DNA of 24,034 nt. It comes from a virus. Position numbers and translations under genes: made by a program. The stretch's first letter is position 1, and each line of letters starts with the position of its first letter. Below, piece by piece: positions 512-23,254 of the stretch. The notes beneath the pieces were generated by a model. It did no database searches, was not told the DNA's origin, and worked only from the letters and a program-made list of their open reading frames with translations. The DNA lies in the UHGV virus genome UHGV-0029496; one strand, written 5' to 3'.

Positions 512-3139
512 TTAGCTAAAACCGTTGCTGAATCCGCCGGAGAAACCGCGACCGAAGGGTGCGACACCGTCGTATTTATAGAAATCCGCTTCATAGTTAA
601 CCCCGGTAATCTTAACTGTTCTGTCATCTCCGGGGTCAACTGTAGAAACAAGAATCATCTGAGCATTATGCCTTGCTTCGTTGCCGAATGAAAACTCAGT
701 TTTTAGTGCGCTATTCCCTGTGTAAATTGCCTCCTGCGGCGCGGATAACATAACCACTTCACGGTCATGACTTCCAGGAACTACAGCGACGCTCTGGACA
801 CCACCGTCGCGCTTCTTAAGGATTAAAGAGTGGTCGTCACCCGGAGTAAATGTGACAGGCTGTGATAAAGTCAGAGTAAGACCATTAACGGCAACAACAT
901 AGCCGTCTTGAGGCGCTACGCGCGAACCTTTAACGACGCTTATTGCGCGACCCGGCAGCACAAAAACTCCCTCTTCTGTCGCTGTAAAGGACACCGTGAC
1001 TTTCTTCAACAGGTTCTTCTGGTACCGACGGTACGCCGCCCAGTACGCCTGACGATAATTACGTATACCTTTGGAGTCATACGTTTCAGTATTAACACCA
1101 CCTTCGGCTGGGATGCTGATGGTCTCTTTTACGTTAGTATCTGGGTCGATGTAGGAGAACTTAAGACTATCATATACCTGAGCGTCGTTGAACGTTCGGG
1201 TCCACTTCTCCGTAGCTGTAGTCTTGCTGCGATGTGTGAACACCATCTCCGGGCCAATCCGCGGGCGCTCGAAATCCAGTAATATGTCCTGCCCTTTACG
1301 ATATGGTATGCAGAAAATAGCGTCGGCTATTGTGCTGATTATGTCCTGCATAGTCATTTTATAATCGTCAAAAGTGTAGCAGAATTGACCGGCCTCTGCG
1401 TTACCGAAATAGTTTTCTATCTCGTTCTGAGTCGCTAACAACTTGTCCATATTGGATGTGGTTAGGTTGAGATTACCTACTACCGGGTCGCGGGCAAGAC
1501 GGATTAAGGACTGAATCGCCTGAGTATTTGGTGTCATAACCGTGTCGAATACGCCGTTGCCGAGGTATTTGTACACCATCTCTGTGGCAACCATACGTAG
1601 TTGCGGCTGCTTAATCTCCGCGGCCCGCGGCGTCTGCTTACGTGCGGAGTGCACGGTAGTACGGTTGCCGTAATGCGGTGTAGTGTCGCGTACCTGCCCA
1701 TAAAGATTGATGTAGGAAACCTCATCTACCACGGTTCCCTCAAAACTGAGGTCCAGGTCAGTGACGCGGCGGGCACGTACCCTAACTTTCGACCGCATGG
1801 GCAAGTCGGCGTAAATAGTAACACCTGTGTAATCCGCAGAACGACCTGATATAACGGCCTGTTTTGAGTAAACATCACCGTACGGCACGCCAGTTCCATC
1901 AAGGAGTTGATACTGAAGCTCGACAGTTACCGACGTGCGCAATTTACTGCCGTTGTCTTTATACATACCATTCGCGGCCGCGATGTTGGCTACTACACGT
2001 TCAACTTCCAGGCGGTTTAAGGTAGTCCAGTCCGTTAACGACTTATCGTAAGTGTTCGACGGTGAAATCCATGCTTCGGTACCTTGCGTTAAAGGAGTGA
2101 ATCCCGATGGCAATTTTTGCCATGCTGACAACATCCCTCCGACGGCTACTCTTACCTCAAAGTCATCTACGTATGTAACAGTATAGCTACCACTGACGTT
2201 AGCCACGTCTTTTACCAGAATAAGGTTAAAAACAGCTATGTCCCCAACTGATAAAATCTCAGAGAAAGCAGAGTCGCCAGTGTTATCGCGGACGACACCA
2301 GTTGCCCCCTGCAATGAAATCTCACCGGTATCACTGGGATTAACCCTGATGTCGTTCTGCGCTTTAAGAACAGCCCCATCTACCTCGTTCGAGGTAATAG
2401 TTATGTATAGATTTTGATTAATAGGATCCCCTACCAGAAGCTGAGGCGTATTTGTATTGTTAGGGGATGTAAATGGGGCGTATACCGCTACAGAAGTTCC
2501 TGTAATCTCCTGCACTTTAGTATCGCCGTCTGTGATGTCTTCGGCTTTAATATCAAGATACCCGCGACCGGCGTCATAGTAGCCGTATTCAACTACCACA
2601 CCTGCGTCATTGAAGACCTTATACGTAGTCATGAGGTCATTAGGGATAGTCTGGACCCTGCCGCAAATATCATACGACCGTTCATACGGCCGCGGTTTAT
2701 TGTTTCGGTCAGTCAGGCTGTTGTTGGGAGACTCCGCCTGCTGGTTCGCTAAACTCGTTTTAGGCGTTTTCTGCGACGGAGAAATCAACTTGGTAATAAA
2801 TTTAAGCACACCCAAAGGGTCAAGGAGTTTACCCAGAAAACCACCACCGCCGCCAGCACCCTCGATGATATGGAAAACGTCATCTTCTTTCAGCGCTTCG
2901 AAGTTTTCCGTTACGTCTGTATCATCACCAATCTCGCCGCGGTAAATACGCACAGGTACCCCGTCTGGGATGTTAGCAACGACGTATTCCATCGGAGGTA
3001 CGTTATACCGTTTGCGGTCAAAAGTACCGTCTTCGTTACGGGTGTAATGTAATATCAGCGCCAAAATTCTATCTCCGCATAAGTTTCGCGCAAGTCTTCC
3101 AGTCGGTCTAACCGTACCTGGCGACTTGCTAGCTCGCAA
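512..3139 (-). CDS. Tail tip protein: gpI-like N-terminal domain fused to a large J-like central fibre / host-specificity protein
   Basis: 875-codon ORF. N-terminal VRIYRGEIG...VFHIIEGAGGGGGFLGKLL resembles lambda tail assembly protein I (VIHIVPRVAGAKSGG). Track start is TTG at 3139; alternatives are TTG 3064 (GGAGA SD) or ATG 2992. Position after K-like gene. Confidence 0.6.
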   Translation of the reverse strand: MRASKSPGTVRPTGRLARNLCGDRILALILHYTRNEDGTFDRKRYNVPPMEYVVANIPDGVPVRIYRGEIGDDTDVTENFEALKEDDVFHIIEGAGGGGGFLGKLLDPLGVLKFITKLISPSQKTPKTSLANQQAESPNNSLTDRNNKPRPYERSYDICGRVQTIPNDLMTTYKVFNDAGVVVEYGYYDAGRGYLDIKAEDITDGDTKVQEITGTSVAVYAPFTSPNNTNTPQLLVGDPINQNLYITITSNEVDGAVLKAQNDIRVNPSDTGEISLQGATGVVRDNTGDSAFSEILSVGDIAVFNLILVKDVANVSGSYTVTYVDDFEVRVAVGGMLSAWQKLPSGFTPLTQGTEAWISPSNTYDKSLTDWTTLNRLEVERVVANIAAANGMYKDNGSKLRTSVTVELQYQLLDGTGVPYGDVYSKQAVISGRSADYTGVTIYADLPMRSKVRVRARRVTDLDLSFEGTVVDEVSYINLYGQVRDTTPHYGNRTTVHSARKQTPRAAEIKQPQLRMVATEMVYKYLGNGVFDTVMTPNTQAIQSLIRLARDPVVGNLNLTTSNMDKLLATQNEIENYFGNAEAGQFCYTFDDYKMTMQDIISTIADAIFCIPYRKGQDILLDFERPRIGPEMVFTHRSKTTATEKWTRTFNDAQVYDSLKFSYIDPDTNVKETISIPAEGGVNTETYDSKGIRNYRQAYWAAYRRYQKNLLKKVTVSFTATEEGVFVLPGRAISVVKGSRVAPQDGYVVAVNGLTLTLSQPVTFTPGDDHSLILKKRDGGVQSVAVVPGSHDREVVMLSAPQEAIYTGNSALKTEFSFGNEARHNAQMILVSTVDPGDDRTVKITGVNYEADFYKYDGVAPFGRGFSGGFSNGFS

Positions 3140-3420
3140 TGACTGACCATACCATCATAATATACGCCAGCGTGCCAGATTACACGGTTTCTGTGCCGTG
3201 TTGCCATCAGCACGGCATCGAAGTTTTGCGGAGTTTCTACGCGTACGAGGCCTTTAGTGTCTTTATGGCCTTCTTCGAAGGCGTCGTTAATCTGTGTTGG
3301 TGAAGCGACGTTAAACTCTGGCGTAAAAAGACCAGCGTCGGTACGAACGTTACGCACGTGGTGCCAGCAATTACGACGGCGAAAATCGTACGGTAACCCA
3401 GTATAAGAATTAATGTTCAT
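3055..3420 (-). CDS. Tail assembly protein, NlpC/P60-like (lambda gpK-like)
   Basis: ATG at 3420 overlaps the upstream stop (ATGA). Cys-His motifs NCWHHV, WHAGVYYDG, SHCEL fit an NlpC/P60 peptidase core; lies between L-like and I/J-like genes as in lambda. Confidence 0.55.
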   Translation of the reverse strand: MNINSYTGLPYDFRRRNCWHHVRNVRTDAGLFTPEFNVASPTQINDAFEEGHKDTKGLVRVETPQNFDAVLMATRHRNRVIWHAGVYYDGMVSHCELASRQVRLDRLEDLRETYAEIEFWR

Positions 3421-8945: not shown

Positions 8946-10076
8946 ATGGCCCAGAAGAAAATAACCGACGAACAGTTACAGGAAGAATTGAACGCCGGGA
9001 TGAAGAATATCGACATCGCACGTAAATATGGCATCTCAGACCGCGTTATTCGTATCCGTAAAGCGAAGCTGGCTAAGAAAGGTGTAGGCCACGGGCGTGA
9101 CGTTAGTCACCTTGTGCCGGACGGTTACAAGATTAAAGGAACGTCGTCACTGGTGGACGAGTTCGGCAACACTAAGTTGCAATGGGTTAAGACCGACACC
9201 GATGCCGAACGTCAGGTCGAATTGATGAAAGCCGTAATCGAAGGAATGAAGTCAGAGATTACGCCAGTTGCGCCTGTTAAAGCCATTCGCGCTAAACGCG
9301 ATGACAAGCTACTTAATCTTTACACGGTATCTGATTTTCATCTCGGTATGCTGGCATGGGCGGATGAGAGCGGCGACGACTGGGATATGAAGATTGCGGA
9401 AGACCTGTTCTCCCGATGGTTCGACGCGGCATTCCAGAAAGCACCGGATGCAGGAACAGGAGTTATTAATCTGTTAGGTGACTTCGCACACTTTGATAGT
9501 CTTGATGCCGTTACGCCCGAGTCGTGCCATGTGCTAGACGCGGATACGCGCTACCAGAAACTTGTCCGCTACATGATTCGCATGGTCCGCCGTGTTGTTG
9601 ATATGGCGCTGGTTAAGCATAACACCGTAAAACTTTTAATCATTCAAGGTAACCACGACCCTGTCGGCTCCGTATGGCTGTCCGAAATGTTCTGCACATT
9701 GTATGACAACGAACCTCGCGTATTTGTGGACACCTCCCCCGACGTATACAAGATGGTTCAGCACGGGAAAACTACACTATTCATGCACCACGGACACCGT
9801 GCGAGATTCGACGCCATAGAGTCGGTAATGATTTCTAAATTCCGTAAGGCTTTCGGAGAAAGCACATACAGCTACGCCCACGTAGGCCACCTGCACCATC
9901 AGAAGATTGTAGAAAGCCGTAACATGATTGTTGAGCAACACCGCACCTTAGCGGCTAAAGACGCCTACGCCTCTCGCGGCGGATGGATGTCAGGCCGTAG
10001 CGCGAATGTAATTACTTATAGCGCCGAATATGGTGAGGTCGCTCGTTTAACTATTTCACCGGAGATGCTGGGATGA
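8946..10076 (+). CDS. HTH domain fused to a calcineurin-like metallophosphoesterase (Mre11/SbcD-like motifs)
   Basis: GAGGAAG SD; N-terminal HTH-like segment IDIARKYGISDRVIRIRKAKL; motifs DFHLG (DxH), GDFAHFD (GDxxD), GNHD, HHGH, GHLHH in the canonical order. Confidence 0.7.
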   Translation: MAQKKITDEQLQEELNAGMKNIDIARKYGISDRVIRIRKAKLAKKGVGHGRDVSHLVPDGYKIKGTSSLVDEFGNTKLQWVKTDTDAERQVELMKAVIEGMKSEITPVAPVKAIRAKRDDKLLNLYTVSDFHLGMLAWADESGDDWDMKIAEDLFSRWFDAAFQKAPDAGTGVINLLGDFAHFDSLDAVTPESCHVLDADTRYQKLVRYMIRMVRRVVDMALVKHNTVKLLIIQGNHDPVGSVWLSEMFCTLYDNEPRVFVDTSPDVYKMVQHGKTTLFMHHGHRARFDAIESVMISKFRKAFGESTYSYAHVGHLHHQKIVESRNMIVEQHRTLAAKDAYASRGGWMSGRSANVITYSAEYGEVARLTISPEMLG

Positions 10077-10303
10077 CTTCAAAATACAACCGCACAATGA
10101 CAAACACCCACGGCAGCACTATGACTGTAGACGTTTACGATGTTCTCCGTGCTTTCGACATCCGCGACCCAGCGCTACAGCACGCATTAAAGAAACTGCT
10201 GTGCATGGGCTTGCGTGGTCACAAGGACACCGGGACCGACTTAGCGGAAGCGATTGAAAGTCTGGAGAAGTTACAGGAATACCGGAGTAATATTGATGAG
10301 TAA
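10073..10303 (+). CDS. Small hypothetical protein, translationally coupled to the phosphoesterase gene
   Basis: ATG overlaps the upstream TGA (ATGA at 10073-10076); 76 aa, helical and charged (DPALQHALKKLL...DLAEAIESLEKLQE). Confidence 0.55.
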   Translation: MTSKYNRTMTNTHGSTMTVDVYDVLRAFDIRDPALQHALKKLLCMGLRGHKDTGTDLAEAIESLEKLQEYRSNIDE

Positions 10304-10451
10304 GAAAAAGCGAACCCCAAACAACAACAACAACAACGTCCCGTATACCCCGCTGCCGTTTCCAGAGCCTAACAAGCCCTCGCCGCTTATGTCGGACAAC
10401 GAATGGCGGCGGGTCGCCAGAATGACCATCCGCCTGAGAAGACTGGCTTGA
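10296..10451 (+). CDS. Small Asn/Pro-rich basic protein
   Basis: ATG 10296 with GGAG 9 nt upstream, overlapping the end of the previous ORF by 8 nt; 51 aa MSKKKRTPNNNNNNVPYTPLPFPEP...; contains the (AAC)6 tract. Confidence 0.4.
   Translation: MSKKKRTPNNNNNNVPYTPLPFPEPNKPSPLMSDNEWRRVARMTIRLRRLA
10320..10337 (+). repeat. Perfect trinucleotide microsatellite (AAC)6, in frame (Asn6)
   Basis: aacaacaacaacaacaac read directly. Confidence 0.9.
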
Positions 10452-10463
10452 CCGATAAATAGT

Positions 10464-10483
10464 AAGGCCCTGAAAGGGGCCTT
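10464..10483 (+). terminator. GC-rich hairpin after the three-gene operon (weak terminator or attenuator)
   Basis: aaggccc-tgaaag-gggcctt, 7-bp stem, no clear U-tract. Confidence 0.3.
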
Positions 10484-10496
10484 ATCGCAACAGGAG

Positions 10497-10991
10497 ATGA
10501 TTATGGACTGGAATGAATTTTTCATATACGACTTAATTTCAGGAAGGATATTTAACAGAGTAACACGTTCCGGGAGGGCTAAGGCTGGAGAGGAGGCAGG
10601 TACGGTACAGCGAGACGGATATAGAAGGATATTTTTCAGGGGTAAATGGCACGCGGCGCACCGTATAGCTTGGGACTTAAACAATACTAACAATAAGCTA
10701 ACCTCGTCAGATCAAATAGACCATCTAGACCATAACCGAATAAACAATAGGCCGCTTAACTTAGCTAAAAAGTCCAATGCGGAAAACCATAAAAATATGT
10801 CAAAACAGCGTAATAATAAATCAGGAGTAACCGGGGTTTACTGGAACGCGAAAGAAAGGTTGTGGTACGCACAGATATTCAACAATAACGTAAAAACACA
10901 CATCGGGTGCTTTAAAACGCTACTAGATGCAGTTGCCGCAAGGAGAGTTGCTGAAAGAGATTTAGGGTTCCACGAGAACCACGGTAAATAG
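10497..10991 (+). CDS. HNH homing endonuclease with C-terminal AP2-like DNA-binding domain
   Basis: HNH core AHRIAWDL...IDHLDHNRINNRPLNL; C-terminal GVTGVYWNAKERLWYAQI...IGCFKTLLDAVAARR is AP2-like; Asn-rich and AT-rich codon usage unlike neighbours. AGGAG abuts ATG 10497, so ATG 10503 may be the true start. Confidence 0.75.
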   Translation: MIMDWNEFFIYDLISGRIFNRVTRSGRAKAGEEAGTVQRDGYRRIFFRGKWHAAHRIAWDLNNTNNKLTSSDQIDHLDHNRINNRPLNLAKKSNAENHKNMSKQRNNKSGVTGVYWNAKERLWYAQIFNNNVKTHIGCFKTLLDAVAARRVAERDLGFHENHGK

Positions 10992-10992
10992 T

Positions 10993-11016
10993 AAGGCCCC
11001 TTTCGGGGCCTTTTCC
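10993..11016. terminator. Bidirectional rho-independent terminator between convergent genes
   Basis: aaggcccc-tttc-ggggcctt followed by ttttcc on the plus strand; also U-rich on the minus strand. Sits between the plus HNH stop (10991) and the minus major tail stop (11017). Confidence 0.7.
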
Positions 11017-22742: not shown

Positions 22743-23254
22743 TACTCGCCCCCCGGTTTAACAGCCTTAACGAAACGAATCTCGATAGGTTCAGAACCCT
22801 CGCCAGTCGATTCTTCTTTCTTATTCAGGCCCAGCTTCGCGGCAGCAAACGTAGCAGAGATACCCGCGGCCCCTGTCTCAGTGAAATACGCCTCTTCCAG
22901 CGCCTGTGCTGTCTCCCAGGCTTCTGCAAATGCGGGAATCTCGCGCAGCCACAGTTTGATAATCGGGATGGTGACGCCGATGTGTAAGGCGAAGCGGGCC
23001 AGTGACGGCGGTTTATCCTGAATCAGCGGGCGCTCGTCACCCTTAGACGTAGGCACAAGTTCCCATGACGTGCGGTCGAAGAAACGAATCAATTCGTCAC
23101 AATAGTCCGGGTCCCACAACGCGGCGGAATTACGGGATGATTGATAAAGGCTCTGTTTGCCGCGCGGTCGTTTACGGCGACGGTTTGCGCTAACAGCTTC
23201 TTCATGTGCAGCTTGCACCACCTCTGGCGATGGCTGCTTGAGTTTCAGCTTCAT
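22742..23254 (-). CDS. Terminase small subunit (by position and HTH-like segment)
   Basis: Directly upstream of and overlapping the large terminase gene; basic N-terminus (RRRKRPRGK) and helix-turn-helix-like LARFALHIGVTIPIIKLWLRE. Track start is GTG 23293; ATG 23254 follows an AAGGGGA SD. Confidence 0.5.
   Translation of the reverse strand: MKLKLKQPSPEVVQAAHEEAVSANRRRKRPRGKQSLYQSSRNSAALWDPDYCDELIRFFDRTSWELVPTSKGDERPLIQDKPPSLARFALHIGVTIPIIKLWLREIPAFAEAWETAQALEEAYFTETGAAGISATFAAAKLGLNKKEESTGEGSEPIEIRFVKAVKPGGE

Follow-up and report, generated by a model that had tools for sequence, protein, structure and literature searches.

Genes and features of the locus

We analyzed a 24,034-nt stretch of viral DNA (UHGV virus genome UHGV-0029496), referred to below as the window; it comes from a Kagunavirus-like (Guernseyvirinae) siphophage of E. 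coli. With 1 kb around the repeat tract discussed here as query, 223 phage records matched at 80–98% identity, mostly Escherichia and Salmonella phages belonging to the same group. The tract is located in a 51-aa ORF that follows a 76-aa gene and is followed, in turn, by a hairpin and a gene for a homing endonuclease (Table 1).

Table 1. Features of the locus, in window coordinates
Feature	Position	Strand	Basis
Upstream 76-aa gene, conserved across Kagunavirus	10073–10303	+	ORF list, alignments, PHROG search
Block shared with ERR9974861, 98.4% identical (245/249) excluding the 6-bp AAC gap	10230–10484		DNA alignment
GGAG Shine-Dalgarno-like motif, 8 nt 5′ of ATG	10284–10287	+	Sequence
Basic Pro-rich ORF, 51 aa, member of PHROG 17117	10296–10451	+	Profile match, alignments, dN/dS
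156-bp segment (codons 6–51, stop, 15 nt) present here and in ERR9974861 only	10311–10466		Alignment, empty sites
Perfect (AAC)6 microsatellite	10320–10337	+	Sequence, Tandem Repeats Finder
G+C-rich hairpin AAGGCCC-TGAAA-GGGGCCTT, copy of the bidirectional terminator closing the island in relatives	10464–10484		
HNH homing endonuclease gene, bracketed by direct repeats	10497–10991	+	

The 51-aa ORF runs from ATG 10296 to a TGA at 10449–10451 (product MSKKKRTPNNNNNNVPYTPLPFPEPNKPSPLMSDNEWRRVARMTIRLRRLA). The protein has eight prolines and 11 Lys and Arg residues against three Asp and Glu (net charge ∼+7.5, pI 11.6). The program-made list of ORFs placed the start at TTG 10254, upstream of this ATG. 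ATG 10296 is the better start, because the GGAG motif precedes it by 8 nt, it overlaps the stop of the 76-aa gene (ATGAGTAA) and homologues all begin with M[SG]K[KR]K. The same overlap suggests that the ORF is probably translated by coupling to the 76-aa gene. No promoter-like site was detected ahead of the ORF, and a hairpin is present 3′ of it.

The 76-aa protein matches only positions 150–220 of the 235-position PHROG 2452, and it also matches the C-terminal parts of several further PHROGs. As its PHROG matches are C-terminal only, this protein corresponds to the C-terminal domain of a longer protein in other phages. A 140-aa ORF on the opposite strand (10271–10693) was rejected as spurious; no PHROG matches it, and its frame crosses both the terminator and the HNH gene.

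A family of small phage proteins

The 51-aa protein matched PHROG 17117 with E 3.7e-13, residues 1–51 aligning with profile positions 1–49 of 58. An exhaustive profile search of 1.84 billion representatives returned only 11 matches, of which eight small representatives (49–60 aa) were retrieved. In these eight, the order of elements is a basic N-terminus M[SG]K[KR]K, a variable linker, PYxPxxFPEP and [ST][DE]x[ED]W..AR..[IV].L+R; residues Y17, W37 and R42 are invariant across family alignments A3 and A4. The 51-aa protein itself has an N-terminal Lys/Arg patch, the conserved PYxPxPFPEP and a C-terminal Arg-rich amphipathic helix, EWRRVARxxIRLRRLA.

Using tblastn we found 56-aa homologues with 52–56% identity in 24 phage records; all three of the records that we inspected are classified as Seuratvirus. 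The homologues are mostly annotated as hypothetical, and a dUTPase gene adjoins them in the three loci examined. The Seuratvirus members of PHROG 17117 (Skure QBZ71687.1 and SLUR25 VOG8445, both 56 aa) have the same basic N-terminus, PYxPxPxPE and the EWR+VARxxIRL+RL helix. The 51-aa protein is 49–56% identical to them, yet it occurs in another phage group and at another genomic position, and a homopolymeric Asn linker is found within PHROG 17117 only in its own subgroup.

The dN/dS ratio among the Seuratvirus copies was 0.16–0.30; between subgroups pN was about 0.3 and pS about 0.9, i.e. synonymous sites were saturated. By its match to PHROG 17117 together with this purifying selection, the 51-aa ORF is a genuine protein-coding gene.

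No significant Pfam, PADLOC or PDB profile match was found for the 51-aa protein. The best PDB match, a segment of CKS1 with E 0.28, was dismissed as chance. The AlphaFold2 model built with the family alignment has one confident helix (residues 34–50, pLDDT about 96), while residues 1–33 are without secondary structure and pLDDT is 59–77 over the Asn tract. As a tentative guess, the protein might contact nucleic acid or an acidic partner through its Lys patch and Arg-rich helix.

A further member of the family, a 53-aa protein (P0008), is encoded in two lambdoid-type phage contigs (L144 and L145, positions 3001–3162 in each). Its gene has the antiterminator Q gene directly 3′ of it and shares bases with the stop codon of an antirepressor (ANT) gene. 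Members of the family are thus found in both virulent and temperate phages, and relatives within the 49–60 aa range also come from metagenomic contigs.

The (AAC)6 tract is longer than expected from composition

The first-pass annotation of this DNA described a perfect 18-bp triplet tract encoding six Asn residues in a 51-aa Pro-rich protein, and both the sequence and Tandem Repeats Finder (period 3, 6.0 copies, 100% matches) bear this out. The in-frame (AAC)6 encodes residues Asn9–Asn14. It is the sole perfect simple sequence repeat (SSR) of at least 12 bp, with a unit of 2–6 nt, in the 24 kb examined. Of 2000 dinucleotide-preserving shuffles, none reached 18 bp; 15 bp was the longest run of period 3 that they gave. 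The (AAC)6 run is thus longer than composition predicts.

The annotation had also called such runs uncommon in tightly packed phage genomes, which held for close relatives and not for viruses at large. Two complete Kagunavirus genomes (85 kb) contain no triplet run of six units and a single run of at least four, (GCC)5; on the other side, at least 120 IMG/VR contigs contain (AAC)6, many among those listed being giant-virus MAGs. In a survey of SSRs in mycobacteriophages, ∼78% of all SSRs were in coding regions, trinucleotides mostly so, and repeat runs reached nine units (PMC6426759). The tract is unusual for the present genome, and the kind of feature has precedent. The (GCC)5 run is located in the tape-measure gene of Ro145c2YLVW (23142–23156).

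Codon usage adds little to the argument. Asn is encoded in this phage by AAC 184 times versus 76 for the other codon (71% AAC), so that six Asn codons would all be AAC with an expected frequency of 0.71^6 = 0.13; since AAC makes up 71% of the Asn codons, the uniform codons are a weak sign of recent expansion.

A second allele with four AAC units

A search of 5.8 billion proteins produced one close relative of the 51-aa protein, a 49-aa protein (P0001) that differs from it by four Asn residues instead of six and by P21S. It is encoded on a 29-kb Logan contig, ERR9974861, which derives from another Kagunavirus, and the gene again follows the 76-aa gene. The ERR9974861 allele is (AAC)4: the DNA alignment has an exact 6-bp gap inside the AAC run, with the reading frame intact, and outside the repeat the two ORFs differ by only two substitutions.

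The first-pass annotation had predicted that slipped-strand changes would vary the length of the tract without breaking the ORF, and had named invariant length as evidence against its reading. The clean two-allele difference, six units here and four in the related genome, agrees with this prediction, and tract length is not invariant. Given that the alleles are otherwise nearly identical, a difference of two whole units is a signature of slippage rather than of substitution.

The two genes lie in the shared block of Table 1, while the kilobases on either side of it are 88–90% identical to ERR9974861. The upstream boundary falls within the 76-aa gene, whose first 157 bp are 88.5% identical and whose last ∼70 bp are inside the block. 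A block of 98.4% identity between flanks of 88–90% implies that the ORF was recently shared by two otherwise diverged phages. Since the sharing, four substitutions in 249 bp and one two-unit repeat change have accumulated; length variation is known from two alleles only, and a claim of elevated mutability amounts to this one indel versus four substitutions per 249 bp.

Searches for additional close copies were negative: in IMG/VR, neither DNA patterns, with or without gaps, nor a protein query gave a match; a 20-mer scan of metagenome and genome collections gave chance matches only (up to 24 nt, in G+C-rich organisms); no further copy was found by tblastn in plasmids or by blastn in ‘distant’ mode in phages and E. 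coli genomes; and exact-protein look-up of the window protein and its N2–N9 variants returned nothing more.

These data also bear on the possibility that the run arose by chance or from composition in a non-coding spacer or a spurious ORF, and that four versus six units is an assembly artefact. Such a reading could draw on the tiny size of the ORF, its lack of a Pfam domain, its absence from nearly all relatives and the origin of one allele from an automated Logan assembly. We consider it extremely unlikely, given that the ORF matches PHROG 17117 and is under purifying selection, that 0/2000 shuffles gave such a run, and that the 18-bp tract is far below sequencing-read length, with a gap of exactly two units between cleanly aligned flanks.

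A hypervariable slot for small genes

The 51-aa ORF was present in 0/223 related phage records; among phage records as a whole, the body of the ORF was unmatched at the DNA level, and no protein match exceeded 60% identity. What the 51-aa gene and its ERR9974861 counterpart have in addition to the relatives is the 156-bp segment of Table 1, whose junctions are ambiguous by a 3-bp microhomology, AAG. Its G+C content is slightly above that of the surroundings (57% versus 51%).

The same site takes different forms among relatives. In Ro145c2YLVW and KMB36, ATGAGTRAGAAAAAG joins the hairpin directly (GAAAAAG to hairpin), without the 156-bp segment. In Bas71 and ORH_001, the empty site GATGAGTRAGAAAAAGGCCCCGAAAGGGGCCTTAGTTTTAT is a bidirectional terminator facing the tail-tube gene. 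The slot is occupied in phiSD1 by an unrelated 58-aa acidic ORF (L016 1597–1773) and in phiEc3 by an unrelated 40-aa ORF (L018 2109–2231), neither with a PHROG match. With slots that are empty or filled by unrelated ORFs, the site is a hypervariable slot for small genes, and the 51-aa gene is a rare accessory insert that does not belong to the conserved genes of Kagunavirus. A direct repeat, TGAGTRAGA, lies on either side of the insert in phiSD1 and suggests recombination at short boundary homologies.

Conservation of the ORF, on which the first-pass annotation had let its reading depend, thus has two sides: the ORF is coding (PHROG 17117, purifying selection), but not one Kagunavirus in the phage collection has it.

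The first five codons of the ORF (ATGAGTAAGAAAAAG) belong to the backbone; they consist of the upstream stop and the A-tract of the terminator and are also found in relatives that lack the ORF. These backbone-derived codons coincide with the native MSKKK start of the family. Homology-assisted insertion and deletion between the AAG microhomologies would both fit. We favor a recent gain or transfer of the ORF, as judged from its distribution, because it occurs in 2 of about 225 genomes and lies within a 98% identical block.

The arrangement resembles morons and the operon-end small-gene slots of tailed phages. As in those, there is presence/absence polymorphism among close relatives, the slot holds unrelated small ORFs, a terminator hairpin is adjacent and the insert is slightly higher in G+C. 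The difference from morons is that no promoter of its own was detected here; the gene is apparently coupled to the upstream gene rather than being an autonomous transcription unit.

Probable slippage in a permissive linker

In alignments A3 and A4, the columns that hold the Asn run, after the basic N-terminus and before PYxP, are gapped and not conserved. Other family members have 8–14 unrelated residues at this position; their linkers are rich in K, S, Q and D, unrelated in sequence, and none contains an Asn run. The linker carrying the run is probably disordered, as predicted by the structural model, and of all parts of the protein it is the one most likely to tolerate in-frame changes in length. 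As the run occupies the linker, gain or loss of AAC units alters linker length only.

One could suppose that selection on the protein maintains the Asn run, for instance as an interaction motif or a polar, flexible spacer, and that its homogeneous codons simply reflect the preferred Asn codon. The preference for AAC (184 versus 76), the retention of a pure run of at least four Asn in both alleles and the predicted disorder of the region are what such selection would lead one to expect. Asn runs are absent from all other family members, however, and the exact two-unit difference between near-identical alleles fits slippage, not substitution; we consider selection for the run itself quite unlikely.

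We find it likely instead that the tract is an Asn proto-repeat expanded by slippage in the permissive linker of a mobile accessory gene, with the four- and six-unit alleles effectively neutral. Replication slippage would have expanded a short Asn-coding proto-repeat inside the small gene; whole AAC units would then be gained or lost, changing only the length of the linker, and such changes would be tolerated. The gene itself would move horizontally into the hypervariable slot that ends a small + strand gene island, before the bidirectional terminator. Both slippage as the mutational mechanism and the near-neutrality of the length change are what we infer from the comparison of the alleles.

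Apart from neutral drift in length, the tract could be a selected tuning device. Slippage would alter the spacing between the patch and the core of the protein, or the efficiency of translation via ACA/CA motifs, and a phage population would carry variants of the small protein with differing activity or dose. ACA motifs and downstream CA repeats have been reported to enhance translation initiation in enterobacteria (PMC3879156). Between about +23 and +41, the mRNA of the 51-aa ORF contains five or six ACA motifs; the tract itself covers +25 to +42, and the region is predicted to lack structure (−2 kcal/mol). The difference between the alleles is one of whole units, and the PHROG 17117 family is variable in linker length. 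All this is compatible with tuning. The initiating ribosome, though, reaches roughly +15 to +20 of the mRNA, and the tract is beyond that reach. Furthermore, no other family member, the Seuratvirus and L005 homologues included, has a CA-rich or repetitive tract there, six units are short compared with known contingency tracts, and an in-frame tract cannot turn the gene on or off. We regard a tuning role as quite improbable. The more specific version, a ‘tuning knob’ whose slippage variants of a host-directed protein, or of its translation rate, are selected as hosts change, we find very improbable; if true, it would constitute an in-frame contingency locus in a lytic coliphage.

Pairing of the CA-rich tract with the host sRNA GcvB was also considered. 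The R1 duplex had −27.8 kcal/mol, a value equaled by 38 of the 2398 phage background windows, and this candidate was rejected.

Slippage in a permissive linker would place the tract among repeat polymorphisms of well-known kinds. It is like the in-frame trinucleotide microsatellites of coding regions (PMC6426759) in being a perfect tract within a CDS, with whole-unit alleles and the frame kept; there is no essential difference, the present case being one of a very small accessory gene with two known alleles. The phase-variable contingency loci of bacteria and some phages likewise have, inside a gene of a host–parasite system, a simple repeat that is prone to slippage. Here, in contrast, the tract is short, its in-frame units of 3 bp allow no switching by frameshift, and there is no evidence that ties it to a surface function or to host range. 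A classical on/off contingency switch was excluded on account of this in-frame unit, and both alleles leave the ORF intact.

The polymorphism is probably of an ordinary slippage type and advances no open question. It is a tidy worked example of an in-frame phage microsatellite that differs by whole units between the sole two known copies, and the (AAC)n tract could be used as a strain marker for the lineage. Its carrier is a rare mobile member of an uncharacterised family of small proteins in Kagunavirus, Seuratvirus and lambdoid phages, and the variable slot by the terminator illustrates the movement of small accessory genes into and out of Kagunavirus genomes.

The HNH gene and a second variable slot

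The hairpin at 10464–10484 is not followed by a T-run on the + strand. It is included in a pair of 34-nt direct repeats (10453–10486 and 10982–11015, 79% identical) that bracket the HNH gene; one copy has the loop TGAAA and the other has it inverted, CTTTC. Ro145c2YLVW and KMB36 have the HNH gene at this spot, and ERR9974861, Bas71, phiSD1 and phiEc3 lack it there; the locus is a presence/absence polymorphism of a homing endonuclease, with duplication of the insertion site. The first ATG of the HNH ORF (10497) abuts AGGAG without a spacer and the second (10503) is spaced from it by 6 nt; translation more likely begins at the second. The KMB36 annotation starts the HNH gene at an upstream ATGAGTGAG and continues through the hairpin, which is probably an over-extension.

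Another gene, of 471 bp, is located between the exonuclease gene and the 76-aa gene in Ro145c2YLVW (L002 1017–1487) and in ERR9974861 (L004 2294–2764); the ERR9974861 copy has a Pfam match to HNH_3. The window is without this gene (junction at about 10073–10076), and KMB36 has a different ORF, of 66 aa, at the same place. The junction between the exonuclease and 76-aa genes is thus a second variable slot of the same small gene island.
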